From contig CAWGTN010000002.1 in the NCBI GenBank assembly GCA_963825525.1, positions 288,001 through 352,000 of the forward strand: 64,000 nt of DNA, in the 5' to 3' direction. Made by a program: the position numbers and the translations under genes. The notes under the pieces were generated by a model that made no database searches, had not been told where the DNA came from, and saw nothing but the letters and a program-made list of their open reading frames with translations. This document shows, one piece after another, positions 51,993 through 61,135 of this stretch; the stretch's first letter is position 1, and the number at the start of each line of letters is the position of its first letter. This DNA is from an uncultured Chloroflexia bacterium (lineage in GTDB: Bacteria; Chloroflexota; Limnocylindria; QHBO01).

Positions 51993-54434
51993 TCAGCGGA
52001 TCTCGGCGCCCAAGTGATGGCGCAGCGCGCCGCGCACCTTGTTGAGCGCCTTCTCGATGGGCTTGGACTCGCCGGGCAGGTCCGGCTGGAAGCGGAGGGA
52101 GATCGCGTAGCTGACCTTGCCCTCGCCCACCTGGTCGCCGCGATAGATGTCAAACAGCCGAAGGTCAACGAGCTGTGGCCCCGCGCTGGTCCGCGCGACC
52201 CGCAGGAGCTCACCGACCGGCGTGCGCTCGTCGATGACCACCGCCAGGTCGCGGTCGACCGGCTGCGCCGCTGGCACCGGTGCCGAACGGCGGTCGGTCG
52301 GGATCAGACCGAACAGACGGCCGAGGTCGATGGACGCGTCGATCGGAGCTTGGGCCAGTCCCCAATGGCTCGCTACGCGGGGATGTACCTCCCCCAACGA
52401 CCCGTACGCCCGCCCGCCGGCATCGCAGACCAGGCCGGTGCGTCCGGGATGGCGGTGCGGATGAGCCGCGTCCGGCTCCTCCGAGCGGTAGATCGGACGC
52501 GGAGCGCCGAGCGCGTCATGCAGCGCATCGATGACTCCCTTCATGTCGGCCACATCCGCATCCCGGGCCGCCTGGCCCGGAGTTGCCGGCACCTGCGTCC
52601 CGGACAGCACCAGGCCCAGCTCCCACGACTCGTAGCGGCCCGTGCCCGCGGTCTCGGAGCGCAGGTCACGCGGCGTCGGGTGGGACGGGCGATAGCCGTA
52701 GACCTTGCCGAGGTCGAAGAGCCGCACGCTCGATTGCCGCCACCGCGCATTTTCCGCCACTCCCCGCAGCAACGACGGGGTCATGGTCGGACGCATGATC
52801 GCGTGCTCGTCACTCAGCGGGTTGAAGATCCGCACCAGCTCAGGATCGTCTGCCGGGGTCCCGGTCCGAACGAGGTCCTCGCCGCCGATGAGGGCATGGC
52901 TCACCATCTCGTCCAGCCCGAGGCCCGCCAGCACGCGTCGCACGACGTGCCGCGGCTCGCTCGGATCGGGCCGATACGGTGGCAGCGCCGCTCGCGGCAG
53001 GCGCCCCGGGATACGGTCGTAGCCGTAGGCGCGGGCGATCTCCTCGGCCACGTCGGCGTCCGAGGTGATGTCGAGGCGGTGCGGCGGCACCTGCACCTCG
53101 AGCTCGTCGCCGCCCGAGACGACGAAGCCGAGCGGCTCGATCAGCTGACGCACGCCATCCGCCGTGAGCTCGATGCCAAGCAGTCGGCTTGCTCGCTCGA
53201 CATGCACCCTGACCATCGAGCGCTGAGGCGGTTCCGGGTCGTTGTCGACGATGCCGACGGCGACCCGGGCGCCGGTGATCTCGGCGATCAGCGAGGCGGC
53301 ACGGTCGAGCGCGAGCCGTGGCAGATCGGGCCCGATGCCCTTCTCGTGCCTCGCGCTCGCCTCCGATCGAAGCCCGAGCCGCCGCGCGGTCGATCGGATG
53401 GTCGGGCCATGGAAGATCGCCGATTCCAGGATCACGCGCGTCGTCGTCTCGGTCACCTCGGTCGACGCACCGCCCATGATCCCCGCCAGTCCGATCGCGC
53501 TGCGGTCGTCGGCGATGACGAGCATCGTCGGGTCGAGCCTCCGCTCGACGTGATCAATGGTCACGAGTCGCTCATCGTCGCGCGCGCGGCGCACGACCAG
53601 CGAACCGTCGGGTACGCGGTCGGCGTCGTACGCATGCATCGGCTGTCCCAGCTCGTGCATCACGTAGTTCGTGACGTCGACTACGGCGCTCACCGGGCGC
53701 ATGCCCGCGGCCACCAGGCGTCGCTGCATCCAGTCGGGCGACGAGCCATTGCGAACCTCGTCGAACCACCGCCCCGCGAAGCGCGGGTTGAGGACCGGCT
53801 CGTCGATCCGCACGCGAAGGTGATCGGAGCTGGGTGACCCCCGCTCGGTGACCTCGGTTGCGGGACCTCGCAGCTCTCCCCCGCCGAGCGCCGCTATCTC
53901 ACGCGCCAGCCCGACCATCGAGAGTGCATCGCCGCGGTTCGGTTTGACGTCGACATCCAGCACGATCTCGCCGACCAGCTCGGCCAGGCCGATGCCGATC
54001 GGCAGCTCATCGCCGTGCCCGAGAATATGGATTCCATCGGCGTCGGCACCAAGGCCCAGCTCGATCGCGCTGCACAACATGCCGTTGCTCACGACGCCGC
54101 GGATCTTGCTGCGCTCGATGCGTCGATCTCCTGGAAGGCTGGCGCCGACGAGCGCGGCCGGCACGAGCTGCCCAACCTCCAGGTTCTGTGCGCCGCACAC
54201 GATCTCAAGCTCGCCGCCGGCTGATCCGACATCGACCCGGGTCAGCCACAGCGTGTCGGCGTTCGGATGTCGCTCGACGCTCAGCACGCGTGCGACCACG
54301 ACATCGGTCCAGTCAGCACCCGTCGTCTCGATGGAGCTGACCTCCATCCCGCGCATCGTGAGCGCCTCCGCGAGTGCGCGCGGCTCGAGGTCGATGTCAA
54401 CGTAGTCGCGGAGCCAGTCGAGCGGAACGCGCAT
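51993..54434 (-). CDS. pheT: Phenylalanine--tRNA ligase beta subunit
   Basis: HPNAD, VCGA, PNRGD, RHEKG, EEIARAYG and FDIYRG. Confidence 0.97.
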   Translation of the reverse strand: MRVPLDWLRDYVDIDLEPRALAEALTMRGMEVSSIETTGADWTDVVVARVLSVERHPNADTLWLTRVDVGSAGGELEIVCGAQNLEVGQLVPAALVGASLPGDRRIERSKIRGVVSNGMLCSAIELGLGADADGIHILGHGDELPIGIGLAELVGEIVLDVDVKPNRGDALSMVGLAREIAALGGGELRGPATEVTERGSPSSDHLRVRIDEPVLNPRFAGRWFDEVRNGSSPDWMQRRLVAAGMRPVSAVVDVTNYVMHELGQPMHAYDADRVPDGSLVVRRARDDERLVTIDHVERRLDPTMLVIADDRSAIGLAGIMGGASTEVTETTTRVILESAIFHGPTIRSTARRLGLRSEASARHEKGIGPDLPRLALDRAASLIAEITGARVAVGIVDNDPEPPQRSMVRVHVERASRLLGIELTADGVRQLIEPLGFVVSGGDELEVQVPPHRLDITSDADVAEEIARAYGYDRIPGRLPRAALPPYRPDPSEPRHVVRRVLAGLGLDEMVSHALIGGEDLVRTGTPADDPELVRIFNPLSDEHAIMRPTMTPSLLRGVAENARWRQSSVRLFDLGKVYGYRPSHPTPRDLRSETAGTGRYESWELGLVLSGTQVPATPGQAARDADVADMKGVIDALHDALGAPRPIYRSEEPDAAHPHRHPGRTGLVCDAGGRAYGSLGEVHPRVASHWGLAQAPIDASIDLGRLFGLIPTDRRSAPVPAAQPVDRDLAVVIDERTPVGELLRVARTSAGPQLVDLRLFDIYRGDQVGEGKVSYAISLRFQPDLPGESKPIEKALNKVRGALRHHLGAEIR

Positions 54435-55517
54435 CTACCGGCCCTCGACGAACTGCGATGTGAACCGCGTGTCCGCGCTGAAGAAGAGCCGGATGTCGCT
54501 GATCCCGTGCCGAAGCATCGTCATGCGGTCCGGCCCCATGCCGAAGGCATAGCCCTGGTACTCGTCCGGGTCGAACCCTCCGTTGCGGAGGACCGTGGGA
54601 TGCACCATGCCGGCACCCAGGATCGTCATCCAGCCGGTGCGCTGGCAGGCCGCGCATCCCGGCCCGCCGCACACGAGACAGCCGACATCGAACGCGACGC
54701 TCGGCTCGGTGAACGGGTAGTACCCGGGGCGGAAGCGGGTCCGCACGTCGCGGCCGTAGAGCGCCGCTGCGATCTCCTCGAGCATTCCCTTGAGGTCCGC
54801 CAGGCTCGTATCTCGGTCGACGACCAGGCCCTCGACCTGGAAGAACTCGAATGCATGGCTGGCGTCGACCGCCTCATAGCGGAAGCATCGGCCCGGGGTG
54901 ATGACGCGAATGGGCGCGTCCAGCGCCTGCATGGCGCGGACCTGCACGGGGCTGGTGTGCGTGCGCAGGATGGTCCCGTCCGATGCCGGCCGTGGATCCC
55001 CCGCCTCGACCGATCCGGGCTCGGCCACGTAGAGCGTGTCCCACAGGTCGCGGGCCGGGTGCTCCGGCGGGATGTTCAGCAGCTCGAAGTTGTACTCCTC
55101 GGTCTCGATCTCGGGGCCCTCGAAGACCTCGAAGCCGAACGCATGGAAGACCTCGCGCAGGTCGCGCATCAACGTCTGCACCGGGTGCAGGTGCCCGATG
55201 CGCACCGGGCGCCCCGGTGCGCTCATGTCGATGGCCTCGCTGGCCAGGCGCCCGTCAAGCGCGCCAGCGGTCACGGCCTCCATCCGCGCCGACAGCGCGT
55301 TCTCCACGGCGCCGCGAACGTCATTGGCGAGCTTGCCGAGAACCGGCCGGTCCGCGACCGGGGCGCCTGCCAGCTGCTTGAGCAGCGCCGTCAGGCGGCC
55401 GGAGCGCCCCAGGAAGTCACGCCGCACAGCGTCGACCGCATCGGGGCTGTCCGCGTCGCTCAAGCGCCCCATGGCCTCGGATCGGAGGCCGGTGAGCGCG
55501 TCGCCCAGGTCCGTCAT
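54435..55517 (-). CDS. pheS: Phenylalanine--tRNA ligase alpha subunit
   Basis: GHLHP, HPARD, LRTHTS, YPFTEP and AFGMG. Confidence 0.97.
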   Translation of the reverse strand: MTDLGDALTGLRSEAMGRLSDADSPDAVDAVRRDFLGRSGRLTALLKQLAGAPVADRPVLGKLANDVRGAVENALSARMEAVTAGALDGRLASEAIDMSAPGRPVRIGHLHPVQTLMRDLREVFHAFGFEVFEGPEIETEEYNFELLNIPPEHPARDLWDTLYVAEPGSVEAGDPRPASDGTILRTHTSPVQVRAMQALDAPIRVITPGRCFRYEAVDASHAFEFFQVEGLVVDRDTSLADLKGMLEEIAAALYGRDVRTRFRPGYYPFTEPSVAFDVGCLVCGGPGCAACQRTGWMTILGAGMVHPTVLRNGGFDPDEYQGYAFGMGPDRMTMLRHGISDIRLFFSADTRFTSQFVEGR

Positions 55518-55575
55518 TGGGACTCGATCTCCGCGTTGGCTCGTGTGTGCATCGGTGCGTGCTGCATCATCGGTG

Positions 55576-55613
55576 AAAACGAACGACCCCGCCCCGCTTC
55601 CGGGACAGGGTCG
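55576..55613 (-). terminator. Intrinsic terminator after rplT
   Basis: Minus strand CGACCCTGTCCC-loop-GGGGCGGGGTCG followed by TTCGTTTT. Confidence 0.7.
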
Positions 55614-55640
55614 GTGAGACCGATCGGCTTGCGCCGACGG

Positions 55641-56000
55641 TCAGCTGGTAAAGGTCGCTTTCGCCGTCTCGACCATCGCGGCGAAGGCAGCGGGCTCGCG
55701 AATGGCCATGTCAGCCAGGATCTTGCGGTCGACCTCGACCCCCGCGGACTTCAGCCCCGCGATGAACCGGCCATACGGCACGCCGTGCTGACGGGAGGCC
55801 GCGTTGATGCGCTCGATCCACAGGCGTCGCATGTCCCGCTTCCGATTCCGGCGGTCGCGGTACGCGTAGACGAGGGCGTGGATGAGGGCTTCCCGCGCCG
55901 GCCGGATCAGCGTCGAGCGCGTCCCACGACGACCCTCGGCGCGATTGAGCAGCTTCTTGTGGCGCTTGTGGGCGGTGACGCCACGCTTGACTCTGGCCAT
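55641..56000 (-). CDS. rplT: 50S ribosomal protein L20
   Basis: [25 protein letters not shown] and DRKILAD. Confidence 0.98.
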
Positions 56001-56003
56001 CGG

Positions 56004-56213
56004 CTACTTCCCCTTGCCGGCGTACGGCATGAGGCGCTCGAGCTGGGCAGTGTGTGTGGAGGACGCCTCCGTCACGCCGTCATAGCGCCGTCGGCGCCGA
56101 GCGGACTTGATCTCGAGATGGTGGCCACGCCACGCCTTCGGGCGCACCCACTTGCCGGAACCGGTCTTCCGGTAGCGCTTGGCCGTGCCCTTGTGGGTCT
56201 TCATCTTTGGCAT
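56004..56213 (-). CDS. rpmI: 50S ribosomal protein L35
   Basis: MPKMKTHKGTAKRY...LMPY. Confidence 0.96.
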   Translation of the reverse strand: MPKMKTHKGTAKRYRKTGSGKWVRPKAWRGHHLEIKSARRRRRYDGVTEASSTHTAQLERLMPYAGKGK

Positions 56214-56220
56214 ATTCGGT

Positions 56221-56883
56221 CTACGATCCCTGCTGTGCCGGCGCCTCGCCCGCCGCCGGAGCCGCCGGCTCACGCGCTGGAGCCGGAACCTTGGCGGCGA
56301 TCGCGTCACCGATGGTGTCGCCGGCAGCCGCGGATCCGTCCGCTTCGCCGTTCTCGCTCTTCTTCTCCGGTCGCTTCTCGACCGGTGCCATCACGATGTA
56401 CATGCTTCGGCCCTCGAGCAGTGGTTGCCGCTCGATGAAGCCGTGCTCGGAGAGCTCCTCCGCCGTCCGCATCAGCAGATCGCGTCCGAGATTCGCGTGG
56501 CTGATCTCTCGCCCGCGGAATCGCACCGTGACCTTGACGCGGTCCCCCTTGTCGAGGAACTCCGCCGCTCGCCGCGCCTTCGTGCGGAGGTCGTGGACGT
56601 CGATCTTGACGGCCAGGCGAACTTCCTTGAAGGTCTGCGACTTCTGCTTCTTCTTTTGCTCGCGTTCGCGCTTCTGCAGCTCGTACTTGTACTGGCCGTA
56701 GTCGAGGATGCGACAGACCGGCGGGACCGCGGTGGGTGCGACCTCCACGAGGTCGAGACCCCTTTCCTGTGCCAGAGCGAGCGCCTCGGACGTCGCCATG
56801 ACGCCCAACTGCTGCCCTTCATCGTCAATGATCCTCACCTCGCGGATGCGGATCATCTCGTTGATGCGGAGGTCCTTGGCCAG
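56221..56883 (-). CDS. infC: Translation initiation factor IF-3 (probable CTG start)
   Basis: GAAGGAG RBS then CTG GCC AAG GAC CTC CGC ATC AAC GAG (xAKDLRINE). LDLVEV, PPVCRILDYG and VRFRGRE. Confidence 0.95.
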   Translation of the reverse strand: MAKDLRINEMIRIREVRIIDDEGQQLGVMATSEALALAQERGLDLVEVAPTAVPPVCRILDYGQYKYELQKREREQKKKQKSQTFKEVRLAVKIDVHDLRTKARRAAEFLDKGDRVKVTVRFRGREISHANLGRDLLMRTAEELSEHGFIERQPLLEGRSMYIVMAPVEKRPEKKSENGEADGSAAAGDTIGDAIAAKVPAPAREPAAPAAGEAPAQQGS

Positions 56884-56904
56884 CTTTCTTGCTCTCCTTC
56901 AACA

Positions 56905-56994
56905 ACAAGGCCACCGTACCGATCACGGACGGGTGGCCTTGCAACGTACGCGAAATGCCGACGAAGGATACACCGAAACCGAACGGATGGTCAA
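56905..56994 (-). promoter_or_regulatory. infC promoter and leader hairpin (possible L20-type attenuator)
   Basis: TTGACC(56994)-18nt-TATCCT(56970). Hairpin AAGGCCACC...GGTGGCCTT (56907-56940) followed by GTTGTT. Confidence 0.55.
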
Positions 56995-57020
56995 CGCGAG
57001 GACCACGGCGCCGGACAGCG

Positions 57021-57048
57021 ATGAGGACCGCCTTTCGGCAGTCCTCAT
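57021..57048 (-). terminator. GAAA-capped hairpin closing the peptide transcript
   Basis: Minus strand ATGAGGACTGCC-GAAA-GGCGGTCCTCAT; no strong U tract. Confidence 0.55.
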
Positions 57049-57086
57049 GTTCGCTCCGCGGACTCGTGAGAGCCCAGGCCGGTTGG

Positions 57087-57188
57087 TCAGTACCAGCGAT
57101 GTCCGGCCCGGATCACCAGGTCCAGCGGAGCGGGCACTGTCGGAGCAGCCTGCAGTCGGTCGTCTGAGTTGCACACGAACGCGTACAT
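57087..57188 (-). CDS. 33-aa peptide ending AGHRWY (not in ORF track)
   Basis: ATG 1 nt after the stop of the upstream peptide; MYAFVCNSDDRLQAAPTVPAPLDLVIRAGHRWY. Confidence 0.5.
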   Translation of the reverse strand: MYAFVCNSDDRLQAAPTVPAPLDLVIRAGHRWY

Positions 57189-57189
57189 C

Positions 57190-57279
57190 TCAGTTCCACC
57201 GCATGCCGGCTGCAAGGGAGAGGGCCATCGACGCCAGGATCGTGACGGCCCAGGTGAGTCGCGTCAGTCGGTAAGCCAC
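57190..57279 (-). CDS. 29-aa signal-peptide-like precursor ending AGMRWN (not in ORF track)
   Basis: GAGGTG RBS 7 nt before the GTG; MAYRLTRLTWAVTILASMALSLAAGMRWN. First ORF downstream of the riboswitch. Confidence 0.75.
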   Translation of the reverse strand: MAYRLTRLTWAVTILASMALSLAAGMRWN

Positions 57280-57309
57280 GCTTGTTCACCTCGATGAGGG
57301 GACACGATC

Positions 57310-57398
57310 GGAGCCGGCAACCGGGCGGCCTCGGTCCCGTATTGGGCGAGGTCCCTGGCTTTGCGTCCCCGCCTCGCGGCGGGTTTGCCCTGGACGGA
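57310..57398 (-). ncRNA. Cyclic di-GMP-I riboswitch (GEMM-I)
   Basis: Minus strand CAGGGCAAACCCGCC-GCGA-GGCGGGGACGCAAAGCCAGGGACCT...AGGCCGCCCGGTTGCCG. Matches the class-I hallmarks GGCAAAC, GNRA-capped P2, GACGCAAAGC and GGTT(A/G)CC. Confidence 0.92.
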
Positions 57399-57458
57399 CG
57401 ATCGACGGAAGGCGATTCTCGCCCTCAGTGCGACCGTAGGCCGGAGGTCCGGGCACGC

Positions 57459-58034
57459 CTATCGCTCATCGGTACTCGGCGGGGGGTACGTTGGTGGGAG
57501 GTTCCCCGGCGCACCGCCCCTGCGCATCAGCACGGCAATCGTCCACGCCACCCCGATGGCGATGAGCACGTCGCCGACGCTGAACACGTTGGCGAACGGG
57601 AGTGGCGGAGGAAGCGCAAAGATGTCGGTCAGGGGATGCAGTCGTGGGGCGTCCATCACGACGCTGTTCGAGTAGCCCTCGTTGACCTCCCGCCCGAGGG
57701 CGGCGAGGGCACCGGGCGAGGCGGGCATCGAGCCGCCGTTTGCCACGATGGCGGCGAGGTTGCTTGCTGCGCCGATCGCCACCAATCCCAGGCCACCGAG
57801 CGCCAGGTTGCGGAGGACCACCACCAGCACCAGTGCGGTCGACCCGACATAGATGGGCATGCCGAGGTCGCCGACGCGCTCGGCCACCGGCCCGAAGAAG
57901 AGAACCACCTGGATCATCAGCCCGATGAGCGCCAGCGGTGCCCAACGGAGACGCGCGTCGCCCAGGCGGGACAGCTCCCCGCCGCCGAGCCACCCGGCAA
58001 GCAGACCGGCCGGCAGCGCGTAGAGCATGAACAT
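57459..58034 (-). CDS. DUF5317 family membrane protein
   Basis: GWLGGG, NL..IVANGGSMP, LTDIFALP and NVFSVGDVLI. TGATG coupling to the upstream sensor. Confidence 0.85.
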   Translation of the reverse strand: MFMLYALPAGLLAGWLGGGELSRLGDARLRWAPLALIGLMIQVVLFFGPVAERVGDLGMPIYVGSTALVLVVVLRNLALGGLGLVAIGAASNLAAIVANGGSMPASPGALAALGREVNEGYSNSVVMDAPRLHPLTDIFALPPPLPFANVFSVGDVLIAIGVAWTIAVLMRRGGAPGNLPPTYPPPSTDER

Positions 58035-60691
58035 CAGTCAGCCAGGCCCCGCACGAGCGGCGGGATGGCGGGGGCCGACGCTGCGTTCCGTCGAGCGGAT
58101 CCCATGCCGATCACGGTTGGATTCATGCGGAGCGTCTCAATGGGCGCCGGGCGAGCGAACAGGTAGCCCTGCCCGATCTCGCAGCCCATCTCGCGCAGCC
58201 GAGCCAGCTGTCCGGCGTCCTCGATGCCCTCGGCAATGACCATGAGCCCGAGCCGTTGACCCAGCGCCAGGATCGCTCCGGTGAACGCCCACTCCTGCCC
58301 CTCGTCTGCTGCGGGCCCGACGAAGTCCTTCGCGATCTTGAGGATGTCGACCGGGAACCGACGCAGGTACGTGAGCGACGCGTAGCCGGTCCCGAAGTCA
58401 TCGATGGCGATCCGGACGCCGAGGGCTCTCAGCGACTTGAGCTTTTCGATCGTTGCCTGGGTGTCGCGGAACATCGCCGTTTCGGTGATCTCGATGACCA
58501 GGCGCGAAGCGGGCAGGCCGCTCGACTCCAGCACGGCTTCGACGTCCGCGAGAAACTCGCGCTGCTGGAGCTGTACCGCCGAGACGTTCACGCTCACGAA
58601 GAAGTCGTCGTCGATCGGCAGGGATCCATGGACCATGCTGATCTCGTTGGCTGCCGTCTCCATCACGAAGCGCCCCAGCGGGATAATCGCCCCGGACGCC
58701 TCCGCCAGCGCGATGAACTCGTCGGGGTTCACGAGGTCGCGTCCCGGCCGACGCCAACGGGCCAGCGCCTCCATCCCGATGGCCCGGCCGCTGACCAGGT
58801 CGACGATGGGCTGATGCACGACCATGAGCTCGCTTCGCCCGACGGCGCCGCTGAGCGCGTTCGTCATCTCGTGCCGCGCGATGATGGCCGCATGCAGCAT
58901 CGGGTCGAAGACCGCGAACTGCCTCCGTCCATTTCCCTTCGCGGTGTACATCGCCACGTCCGCGTTTCCGAGCAGCTCATCCGCGGACTGCTGCGGACCC
59001 TGGCTGGCCGCGATCCCGATGCTCACGCCGACGGTCACCTCGCGTCCGTGCACCGGGAAGGCATTCCCGAGCGCCGCCACCAGGCGCTCCGCCACGGCGG
59101 CTGATCGGCTGAGATCGGGCTCATCTGCGAGCAGGATGGCGAACTCGTCGCCTCCGAGGCGCGACGCAAGGTCATCCTCTCGGACACAGGCGCGAATGCG
59201 CTCCGCGACCATCACGAGGAGCTCGTCACCGGCCGCATGGCCGAGCGTGTCATTGACGTTCTTGAAATCGTCGAGGTCGAGCAGCAGCACGACGGCGCAC
59301 GGCCCATCGGCTTCCTGGCCGGCGATGCGCGAGGACGCCGCCTCGGTAAACGAGGCGCGGTTCGGCATGTCGGTCAGTGGATCGTGGTACGCCTGGTAGC
59401 GAAGCTGCTCCTTGAGCCGCGACAGTTCTGCCAGTGACTGCTCGAGCTGGCCGTTCTCGAGGGCGACCGCAGCCTGGTTGGCGAGCGTTTCGAGCAGCCG
59501 CAGGTCGTCGTTTCCGAATGTCGTCCCCTCGGTCAGCCTGTTGGCGACCGTGAAGAGCCCGATCACACCGGCTTCGCCGACCAGCGGCGCAACCATGGCC
59601 TGTCGAATGGCCATCAGCCTGCCTCCGGGAGTTTCAGCCAGGTGCACGAATCCCGCGCGACGCTCGTCGATCAGGTCGCCCAGCGCAGGATCGATGCGCA
59701 TTTCGGGGATCGGCTGGATCGTCTCCGACGGGGCGTCGTGCAGCGACGTGGTGCGCAGAGCGTGCTGATCCGTGGCATCCGGGCGCAGGACGAGCTCGGC
59801 AACTTCCGCGCGGAACATCGAGCGGGCGTGATCGAGAAGTGCGACCAGGGCGACGTCAAGCTCCGGCGAGTGCTGGAGGATGCGGCTCGACTGATACACC
59901 ATCTCGAGCCGCTCATGCTTCTCTCGCTCCGAAACCCAAGCCCGATACGCGAGGAAGAGGGTGATGATCGGGATTGCCAGCAGCCACAGCGCGCCGGGGC
60001 TGGCCCACAGGATGGTCACCGCCACCAGCGCGATGCTCGTGTTCGCCACGGCGACCATGAGTCCGAACTGCAGCATGTCGGGGAGCTTCTTGTACTGGGG
60101 TGCGCCCCCGGACAGGGTGATGGCCGTGGCGATGCTCAGTGCCCCGACGACCGTGGCGGCCGCCGTCGCTCCGAACGCCGCAAGGTAGTCGGTCAGGTGC
60201 GGCATGCCGGTGCCGGCCGCGGCCACCTGGAAGATCGCCATCATCACGACCGCCAGGAGGAGATAGTTCGCGAGGTTGAAGGCGACCTTCACCGGGGCCT
60301 GTCGCAACAGCACCAGTGCCGTCAGCGCCCCGACACCCAGGGCGAGAAGGTAGGTCCCCGCGGGCAGGAAGAACAGGCCGATCACGGCCGGCATCTCCGT
60401 CAGAGAGAACGCATGGGACTCGCGACGGAAGTGGACCTCGATGACCTTGATGTCGGCGAGCGCGAACCCGGCCGCGATCGCAATCCAGGGAATCTCGAAT
60501 GGCACGCCACGGCGCGGCGCCGGGGCCACGAACTGCAGGTAGACGAGCAGTGCCAGTCCGGCCAGGAGGAACGAGAAGAGCCACACCCTGCGCGCCGGTC
60601 CAGCCGCCACGAAGCCGGCCCGGATCCGCTGCAGCGGCGAGCGTGGATGCAGGACCCGATCGTCGGCGGTAGGTGCCGTGGGTGAAACCAC
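58034..60691 (-). CDS. Multi-TM sensor-GAF-GGDEF-EAL protein
   Basis: About 7-8 TM segments (HFRRESHAFS, KVAFNLA), GAF, HDPLT, RLGGDEF, MEALARW, DDFGTGY and AEGIE. Start uncertain (60691-60748). Confidence 0.92.
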   Translation of the reverse strand: MVSPTAPTADDRVLHPRSPLQRIRAGFVAAGPARRVWLFSFLLAGLALLVYLQFVAPAPRRGVPFEIPWIAIAAGFALADIKVIEVHFRRESHAFSLTEMPAVIGLFFLPAGTYLLALGVGALTALVLLRQAPVKVAFNLANYLLLAVVMMAIFQVAAAGTGMPHLTDYLAAFGATAAATVVGALSIATAITLSGGAPQYKKLPDMLQFGLMVAVANTSIALVAVTILWASPGALWLLAIPIITLFLAYRAWVSEREKHERLEMVYQSSRILQHSPELDVALVALLDHARSMFRAEVAELVLRPDATDQHALRTTSLHDAPSETIQPIPEMRIDPALGDLIDERRAGFVHLAETPGGRLMAIRQAMVAPLVGEAGVIGLFTVANRLTEGTTFGNDDLRLLETLANQAAVALENGQLEQSLAELSRLKEQLRYQAYHDPLTDMPNRASFTEAASSRIAGQEADGPCAVVLLLDLDDFKNVNDTLGHAAGDELLVMVAERIRACVREDDLASRLGGDEFAILLADEPDLSRSAAVAERLVAALGNAFPVHGREVTVGVSIGIAASQGPQQSADELLGNADVAMYTAKGNGRRQFAVFDPMLHAAIIARHEMTNALSGAVGRSELMVVHQPIVDLVSGRAIGMEALARWRRPGRDLVNPDEFIALAEASGAIIPLGRFVMETAANEISMVHGSLPIDDDFFVSVNVSAVQLQQREFLADVEAVLESSGLPASRLVIEITETAMFRDTQATIEKLKSLRALGVRIAIDDFGTGYASLTYLRRFPVDILKIAKDFVGPAADEGQEWAFTGAILALGQRLGLMVIAEGIEDAGQLARLREMGCEIGQGYLFARPAPIETLRMNPTVIGMGSARRNAASAPAIPPLVRGLAD

Positions 60692-60775
60692 GCTCGCATG
60701 GTGCTCCCTCGACCGGCTTGGCGCCGTCCACCATTCGTACCGAGGCACCCCGTACCCCGAAGGGCCGGAAGGCGC

Positions 60776-61135
60776 TCAGTAGTTGTGGAAGATCGCCACC
60801 GCGCGGCCGTCAGGATCGGCGACTCGGAAGGAACGACTCCCCTCCCAGCGGTCGCCGGAAGGTGGTCCGACGAGTGCGAAGCCGCGCCTTGCAAGCTCCT
60901 GCGCCCACGCATCGACCTCGGCGGCCGTGTCGACACGGAACCCGATCTGGATTCCCTCGCGCGTGGCCTTCTCGCCTCGACGGAAGCTCAGCTCGAACCC
61001 GCCGAGCTCCAGGTCGACTCCGCGCTCATCGTTCGCCATGCGCTTGAAGCCGAATGCCGATTCGTAGAACTCGGCGGCGTGATCCGGGTTGGTTGAAAGC
61101 AGGGCCAGTTGGCCGATGCCGCGCATCTTCCTCAT
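60776..61135 (-). CDS. VOC/glyoxalase family protein
   Basis: AAEFYESAFG, QIGFRV and RSFRVADPDG. Confidence 0.85.
   Translation of the reverse strand: MRKMRGIGQLALLSTNPDHAAEFYESAFGFKRMANDERGVDLELGGFELSFRRGEKATREGIQIGFRVDTAAEVDAWAQELARRGFALVGPPSGDRWEGSRSFRVADPDGRAVAIFHNY

Follow-up and report, generated by a model that had tools for sequence, protein, structure and literature searches.

Regulatory transmembrane micro-proteins such as MgrB, MgtR, PmrR, KdpF and sarcolipin are about 30-50 aa long and consist of a single membrane helix with a short conserved tail, and their genes lie next to, or are regulated together with, that of the membrane protein that they modulate. To our knowledge, neither riboswitch control nor a two-peptide arrangement is a familiar feature of these proteins. 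That riboswitch-controlled micro-proteins can act as effectors of c-di-GMP has only just been shown, in 2026 and in C. difficile, where the 58-aa membrane-associated proteins of the CD1980.2 family are encoded behind class I c-di-GMP riboswitches and link c-di-GMP to sporulation (PMC13724677). According to that report, some members of the family had previously been unannotated and no homologues occur outside C. difficile (PMC13724677).

We describe here a locus of an uncultured Chloroflexota bacterium for which the CD1980.2 family appears to be the closest precedent, the likeness being one of architecture. The locus lies in a stretch of 64,000 nucleotides that was analysed as a whole (the window), and its features are collected in Table 1. 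As in CD1980.2, a c-di-GMP-I-type riboswitch is found directly 5' of a small, previously unannotated ORF that has a ribosome-binding site of its own, and the product is small and hydrophobic, with a membrane association that is predicted here from sequence. The systems differ in the size of the products (58 aa in CD1980.2 versus 29 and 33 aa here), in the arrangement of the copies (seven dispersed paralogues versus a coupled two-ORF unit) and in the host (Firmicutes and sporulation versus uncultured Chloroflexota). CD1980.2 is described as being controlled by premature transcription termination with an OFF response, whereas no terminator lies between the aptamer and the first ORF here. The variant aptamer and the fixed linkage to genes for a DUF5317 membrane protein and a GAF-GGDEF-EAL protein also set this locus apart from CD1980.2. 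In build, its first product resembles MgrB, MgtR, PmrR, KdpF and sarcolipin, a likeness of build only, for which no sequence relationship is claimed.

Table 1. Coordinates in the window of the features of the riboswitch locus.
Feature	Position	Strand	Remarks
GAF-GGDEF-EAL protein	58034..60748	minus	904 aa; Pfam EAL 2.9e-67, GGDEF 4.3e-45, GAF_3 6e-11
DUF5317 membrane protein	57459..58034	minus	191 aa; Pfam PF17248, 5.8e-27; directly 5' of the riboswitch
c-di-GMP-I-GGC aptamer (RF03167)	57398..57312	minus	60.5 bits; full model 1-80
Shine-Dalgarno GAGGTG	57292..57287	minus	7 nt 5' of the ORF1 GTG; read from the sequence
ORF1	57279..57190	minus	29 aa; GTG start 57279..57277; TGA stop 57192..57190; ends AGMRWN
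ORF2	57188..57087	minus	33 aa; ATG 1 nt past the ORF1 stop (TGAgATG); ends LVIRAGHRWY
12-bp G+C-rich stem-loop	57048..57021	minus	3' of ORF2; present in the minimum-energy and centroid folds

The original prediction, made from the DNA letters alone, was that of an unannotated 29-aa precursor at 57190-57279 with a GTG start and a GAGGTG ribosome-binding site. The translation of this ORF, named ORF1, is exactly as it had been given (MAYRLTRLTWAVTILASMALSLAAGMRWN, 29 aa). The strand, which is the minus strand, the second ORF (ORF2) and the hairpin at 57048..57021 were absent from that prediction. Since 93 ORFs of at least 20 aa overlap positions 54000..61000, the length of ORF1 alone is unremarkable in these 7 kb of G+C-rich DNA, but its conservation exceeds chance. 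A DNA search of 41 related genomes recovered the aptamer-ORF1-ORF2 stretch in five genomes of the same genus besides its own, and ORF1 was exactly 29 codons long in all six loci, with differences mostly at third codon positions. When an ORF1 profile was searched against 401 genomes of the class, 84 genomes matched at E <= 0.01, and the weakest of these matches lie within long open frames and are probably due to chance; by family, the matching genomes amounted to 29/153 (f1), 51/137 (f3) and 3/92 (f2). The start, the frame, the length (28-32 aa) and the stop were retained in 30 of the 30 best loci of this 401-genome sample. The distribution within the genus is patchy (13 of 51 sampled genomes matched), and the profile search of the class sample found one ORF1 copy per genome here.

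A scan of one genome per species gave 158 pattern matches, 95 of which were confirmed and 80 loci kept. Nearly all of these further loci come from MAGs titled Chloroflexota, Chloroflexia, Candidatus Limnocylindria or Limnocylindrales, and a few short contigs among them bear other taxon labels. The start codon was GTG in 27 of the 28 ORF1s listed, and a GGAG-type motif was present at the equivalent Shine-Dalgarno position in all listed relatives. By the Nei-Gojobori method, dN/dS of 100 distinct sequences was 0.39 in the ORF1 frame, the lowest of the six, versus 0.63-3.03 in the other five. The sequences for dN/dS and column statistics were picked by motif patterns that fix R7, G25, [RK]27 and W28, which biases dN downward. 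An earlier run with 30 sequences had given 0.46 versus 0.90 and 2.33. ORF1 is thus a genuine unannotated coding micro-ORF, as had been predicted, and the check proposed at the time, conservation of frame and stop in related genomes together with dN/dS and synteny, came out in its favour because relatives keep both the frame and the stop. Four of the peptides were absent, as exact sequences, from a collection of 15 billion proteins and have therefore been missed by gene callers, so that a conserved gene family has gone unnoticed in more than 100 genomes. In the ESM Atlas, unnamed clusters of 29-32 aa were retrieved at 0.89-0.90 for a 31-aa relative of ORF1, which we regard as leads only, and nothing was retrieved for ORF2. 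The tallies over the 41 related genomes, the LspA set and the 151 genomes scanned for aptamers (see below) each include one genome flagged as unpublished (G006, G089), on which no individual conclusion depends.

ORF2 comprises 31-33 codons and starts 1-2 nt past the ORF1 stop in the six same-genus loci; over the wider set of loci, its start lies from 7 nt before to 7 nt after this stop. Its end, AGHRWY, resembles the AGMRWN end of ORF1. In 59 of the 80 further loci, an ORF2 with a G-x-[RK]-W ending was present, and none was detected by pattern in the other 21. For the last 10 codons of ORF2 (69 distinct sequences), dN/dS was 0.32 in frame versus 0.40-2.40, and both ORF1 and ORF2 are conserved coding sequences. 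ORF2 often takes the form of a hydrophobic ORF1 paralogue in a second family of the class, e.g. ...LASSALV[LV]EAG[HQ]RW, and the ORF1 profile itself matches this ORF2 about 100 nt 3' of ORF1. In the genus studied here, conservation is confined to the end ...[DE]LV[IL]RAGHRW-x, and the N-terminus is variable and non-hydrophobic. A purely in-membrane role can therefore not hold for both peptides.

The anatomy of ORF1 was derived from column statistics over 125 distinct ORF1-like DNA sequences, which gave the consensus M-K-x-x-L-x-R-[FLI]-T-W-A-L-x-x-L-A-S-M-A-L-[TS]-[LV]-G-A-G-[MI]-[RK]-W-x. The predicted basic N-region and hydrophobic core are both present: R4 and R7 provide the basic residues here, with family frequencies of 0.84 for K2 and 1.00 for R7, and an uninterrupted stretch of about 19 hydrophobic or small residues (positions 8-26) follows, which reaches the cleavage point that had been proposed. 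Near-invariant positions are L15 (0.88), A16 (0.92), A19 (0.98), L20 (0.95), A24 (1.00) and G25 (1.00), as well as W28, and the intervening positions vary among hydrophobic residues. Position 23 is G (0.68), E (0.14), A (0.10) or S (0.06). At none of the 28 core positions is Cys among the four commonest residues in the 125 sequences. The Trp is followed by one residue in 76/125 sequences, by two in 20/125 and by none in 12/125 (range 0-12), and the first residue past it is not conserved. Given the spacing of positions 15, 16, 19, 20, 24 and 25, the conserved small and Leu residues line up along one side of a helix, as is expected where two helices make a specific contact within the membrane. 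With this near-invariant face and its stretch of about 19 residues, ORF1 looks like a membrane-resident peptide with a packing surface and not like a disposable signal peptide. Judged by its composition and conservation pattern, it is most likely a single-pass membrane micro-protein with an R/K-W anchor.

The riboswitch that the original prediction had implied was identified as an aptamer of the c-di-GMP-I-GGC family, lying 33 nt 5' of ORF1 on the same strand. It covers the 80 positions of the RF03167 model with a score above the gathering score of 59 (E 4.8e-13), and it scores above threshold with the canonical c-di-GMP-I model RF01051 as well (55.3 bits versus a gathering score of 35). No other aptamer of this clan was found in the 2.58-Mb genome. 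Among 29 related loci scanned, RF03167 was directly 5' of ORF1 in 28 (the exception being L031), with scores of 56.8-69.3 bits, some of them slightly under 59, and the aptamer motif was present in 74 of the 80 further loci. The aptamer is thus a direct upstream neighbour of ORF1. Two tandem arrangements were observed (L041, 1375..2156, and G123:C27, 22824..23524), in which the aptamers are about 490 nt apart and each is followed by an ORF1.

The c-di-GMP-I-GGC variant was reportedly defined by Weinberg et al. in 2017 (PNAS). Our literature search found no report on its ligand or targets; the papers that name the family merely list it, the defining study may bear on this point, and the reviews found are silent on the GGC variant. 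Within the class, RF03167 occurs commonly, in 66 of 151 genomes. Among the 30 best RF03167 loci, 7 precede peptides of the ORF1 family, 5 precede other hydrophobic micro-ORFs of 31-35 aa, 7 precede one conserved protein and 1 precedes an EAL protein, and the other 10 mostly lie 5' of genes for apparently secreted proteins. As these aptamers also precede unrelated genes, the riboswitch is not dedicated to the ORF1/ORF2 pair. To judge from these loci, RF03167 appears to control a regulon in which micro-peptides are frequent, and such peptides may be a recurrent output of this riboswitch. The other micro-ORFs of 31-35 aa 3' of RF03167 (L059, L065, L067, L075 and L076) do not have the R-W ending, and the conserved protein behind seven aptamers (L062, L070, L074, L078, L080, L081 and L083) carries ..GVSWEYF.. 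in its N-terminal region.

The accessibility of the Shine-Dalgarno sequence was modelled in 55 sequences with the aptamer helix P1 forced or blocked; the site was more open in the bound form in 9 and less open in 10, and no consistent switch direction emerged from this set. In this lineage, the 5' strand of aptamer helix P2 is anti-Shine-Dalgarno-like (GGGA[CU]CU[CU]) and its 3' strand is Shine-Dalgarno-like. Pairing of the real Shine-Dalgarno sequence with the 5' strand of P2 was considered and rejected, as matched pairs (-6.99 kcal/mol) were hardly distinguishable from permuted pairs (-6.82 kcal/mol; 427 of 2000 permutations as good), and no covariation between these two segments was detected.

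Two genes accompany the riboswitch and the peptides. The DUF5317 gene was found upstream on the same strand in 29 of the 30 best loci and in 75 of the 80 further loci, and the GAF-GGDEF-EAL gene, whose product carries several membrane helices at its N-terminus, in 28 of 30 and 59 of 80, respectively. Five loci without the latter gene upstream were examined (L118, L132, L138, L144 and L155), and in all five it was located directly downstream of the peptides. The four-part synteny holds, and the parts of the unit stay together even when their order is permuted. The other downstream genes vary by lineage and include infC, acetolactate synthase genes ilvB/N, regulators and others. DUF5317 also occurs in fusions, to GAF-GGDEF-EAL (P0128, 1053 aa) and to EAL (P0142, 445 aa). 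In other lineages it is fused to MFS transporters (entries among P0133-P0144). The predicted structure of the DUF5317 protein had a mean pLDDT of 76.6. A complex prediction of ORF1 with DUF5317 gave no call either way, with scores of 0.19 and 0.22 versus a mark of 0.32. No paper mentioning DUF5317 was found in our literature search.

Downstream of ORF2, the stem-loop likely marks the end of the small transcript. A scan for consensus terminators was negative at this position because the stem-loop has no T-run; equivalent hairpins were found 3' of ORF2 in five close relatives, two of which (L003 and L004) have T-runs. The infC-rpmI-rplT-pheST genes lie downstream of the stem-loop, after a promoter-like sequence of their own (TTGACC-18-TATCCT, 56994..56965).

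We propose that the c-di-GMP-I-GGC riboswitch gates a short bicistronic message for two translationally coupled micro-peptides, which would act in the membrane on the accompanying DUF5317 protein and the membrane-anchored GAF-GGDEF-EAL enzyme and would thereby feed the second-messenger level back onto this enzyme module. To this explanation, taken as a whole, we give an even chance. The aptamer, the Shine-Dalgarno sequence 7 nt before the GTG and the lack of a terminator between aptamer and ORF1 point to control at translation initiation, which would be exerted via the Shine-Dalgarno region, possibly with the participation of Rho. The stop-start overlap suggests that ORF2 is coupled to ORF1, and the hairpin with the separate infC promoter-like site suggests that the two peptides are the sole product of the regulated message; they would be its regulated product and not a leader for another gene. 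ORF1 would be oriented N-in/C-out, with a 19-residue helix that has a small-residue packing face and is anchored by R/K-W at the outer interface. ORF2 would be a diverged paralogue of ORF1 that has retained just the shared [AS]-G-[HQ]-R-W end, and by way of this G-x-R-W ending it would act on the same membrane proteins. We infer the partner of the peptides and their role in feedback from synteny and gene fusions.

If this explanation is correct, the unit would extend the idea of micro-proteins as c-di-GMP effectors, as reported from C. difficile, to an uncultured soil phylum (Chloroflexota) and to a variant aptamer. Its architecture differs as well, in that two coupled micro-ORFs are synteny-locked to genes for a domain of unknown function and a diguanylate cyclase/phosphodiesterase. 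For the GGC riboswitch variant, the locus supplies a target that is strongly conserved, and it provides a handle on DUF5317; the peptides may constitute a feedback route from the second messenger to the enzyme through membrane micro-proteins.

Several other explanations were weighed against this one. According to the original prediction, ORF1 is a signal peptide with a lipobox-like LAAG and a cargo of 4-5 residues, released as the extracellular signal GMRWN or MRWN. In its more general form, a Sec-type pre-peptide that signal peptidase or the DUF5317 protein would cut after A-x-G to free an x-R-W-x signal of 3-5 residues, we consider this unlikely. ORF1 does have the basic N-terminus and the hydrophobic core of Sec signal peptides, the small residues at the would-be -3 and -1 positions (G/E/A/S at position 23, Gly at position 25) make a cut after A-x-G formally possible, and the R/K-W past the putative cut is conserved. 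The lipobox analogy fails, however, because the Cys-equivalent position 25 is Gly in 125 of 125 ORF1-like sequences. Sec signal peptides have a short h-region (about 7-15 residues) followed by a polar c-region, an arrangement not seen in ORF1, whose core of about 19 residues is longer than theirs and conserved in sequence along one face. A cargo of only 3-5 residues is likewise unlike that of a Sec or lipobox precursor, and the predicted cargo reduces to x-[RK]-W plus 0-12 residues that are variable in kind and number. The same AG-x-RW ending on the ORF2 of this genus, which has no hydrophobic core, does not fit Sec export. Moreover, no exporter or processing gene is conserved beside ORF1, where the conserved neighbours are DUF5317 and GAF-GGDEF-EAL, and nothing was found in support of cleavage or secretion of GMRWN or MRWN.

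The DUF5317 protein itself has been a reason to think of a peptidase, since some sources name its homologues 'lipoprotein signal peptidase' and it matches signal peptidase II (Peptidase_A8) weakly in Pfam, at E 0.16 and 12.6 bits, below the cut-off of 25. Structural comparison by VIA-align listed the LspA chains 5dir_A (Z 5.2, rmsd 2.9 over 92 residues, 18% identity, rank 7) and 6ryp_A (Z 4.8, rank 20), both within the stated noise range of the tool and among many unrelated helical rows. Against this, Foldseek had no match for DUF5317 with E <= 0.001, only chance-level rows came back when solved structures were searched with a profile, hhalign put the probability at 3% in a comparison with aligned LspA sequences of the class itself, and the genome has a genuine LspA gene at another place. 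It is very unlikely, in our estimate, that DUF5317 is a diverged LspA-like intramembrane peptidase whose dedicated, ligand-induced substrates are ORF1 and ORF2, cut behind the invariant A-G, with x-R-W-x released as an extracellular signal; in a variant of this reading, the remaining helices would stay in the membrane and regulate the GGDEF-EAL enzyme. It also seems improbable that ORF1 and ORF2 are cis-acting leader or arrest peptides, whose translation, or stalling at G-x-R-W, would control the transcript or a downstream gene. Beside their stops, the two ORFs share one short terminal motif, their lengths (22-35 aa) are such that the peptides fit inside the ribosome exit tunnel, and a same-strand gene lies 3' of them, GAF-GGDEF-EAL in one sub-clade and infC in this family; yet the downstream genes are not conserved, so no constant regulated gene shares the transcript, and the strong hairpin and the separate infC promoter-like site intervene 3' of ORF2. 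ORF1 is moreover conserved over its whole length, including the helix face far from the C-terminus, and a Trp-to-stop distance of 0-12 residues argues against a precise stall at termination. Known small membrane toxins are about 20-35 aa long, and the size and single hydrophobic helix of ORF1 would suit a type-I-toxin-like peptide that perturbs the membrane upon induction by the riboswitch ligand. We hold this to be highly improbable, as the fixed synteny with DUF5317 and GGDEF-EAL and the vertical-looking conservation in two families are atypical of toxin-antitoxin loci, a search of 55500..59000 gave no antisense RNA family at E <= 1, and there is one copy per genome here. Finally, the region might be untranslated and conserved for its RNA structure, e.g. 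as an extended expression platform, and the 411-nt region does fold better than its shuffles (z -5.74). This can be considered extremely unlikely, given that substitutions are concentrated at third codon positions, that dN/dS is minimal in the proposed frames, and that the start codon and its spacing from the Shine-Dalgarno sequence are conserved, as are the stop and the stop-start overlap.

The leader of infC (56861..56998, minus strand), about 140 nt long, is 81-92% identical across most genomes of the genus and contains a short hairpin. It had no Rfam family at E <= 1, and it was matched even in genomes without a match to the riboswitch unit at the same place. In addition, the IF3 frame is open 5' of the listed ATG (..RKLAKDLRINEM.., about 56857..56900, minus strand), behind a GAAGGAG sequence. 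A non-canonical CTG start of infC is therefore likely, and non-canonical infC starts are familiar from other bacteria.
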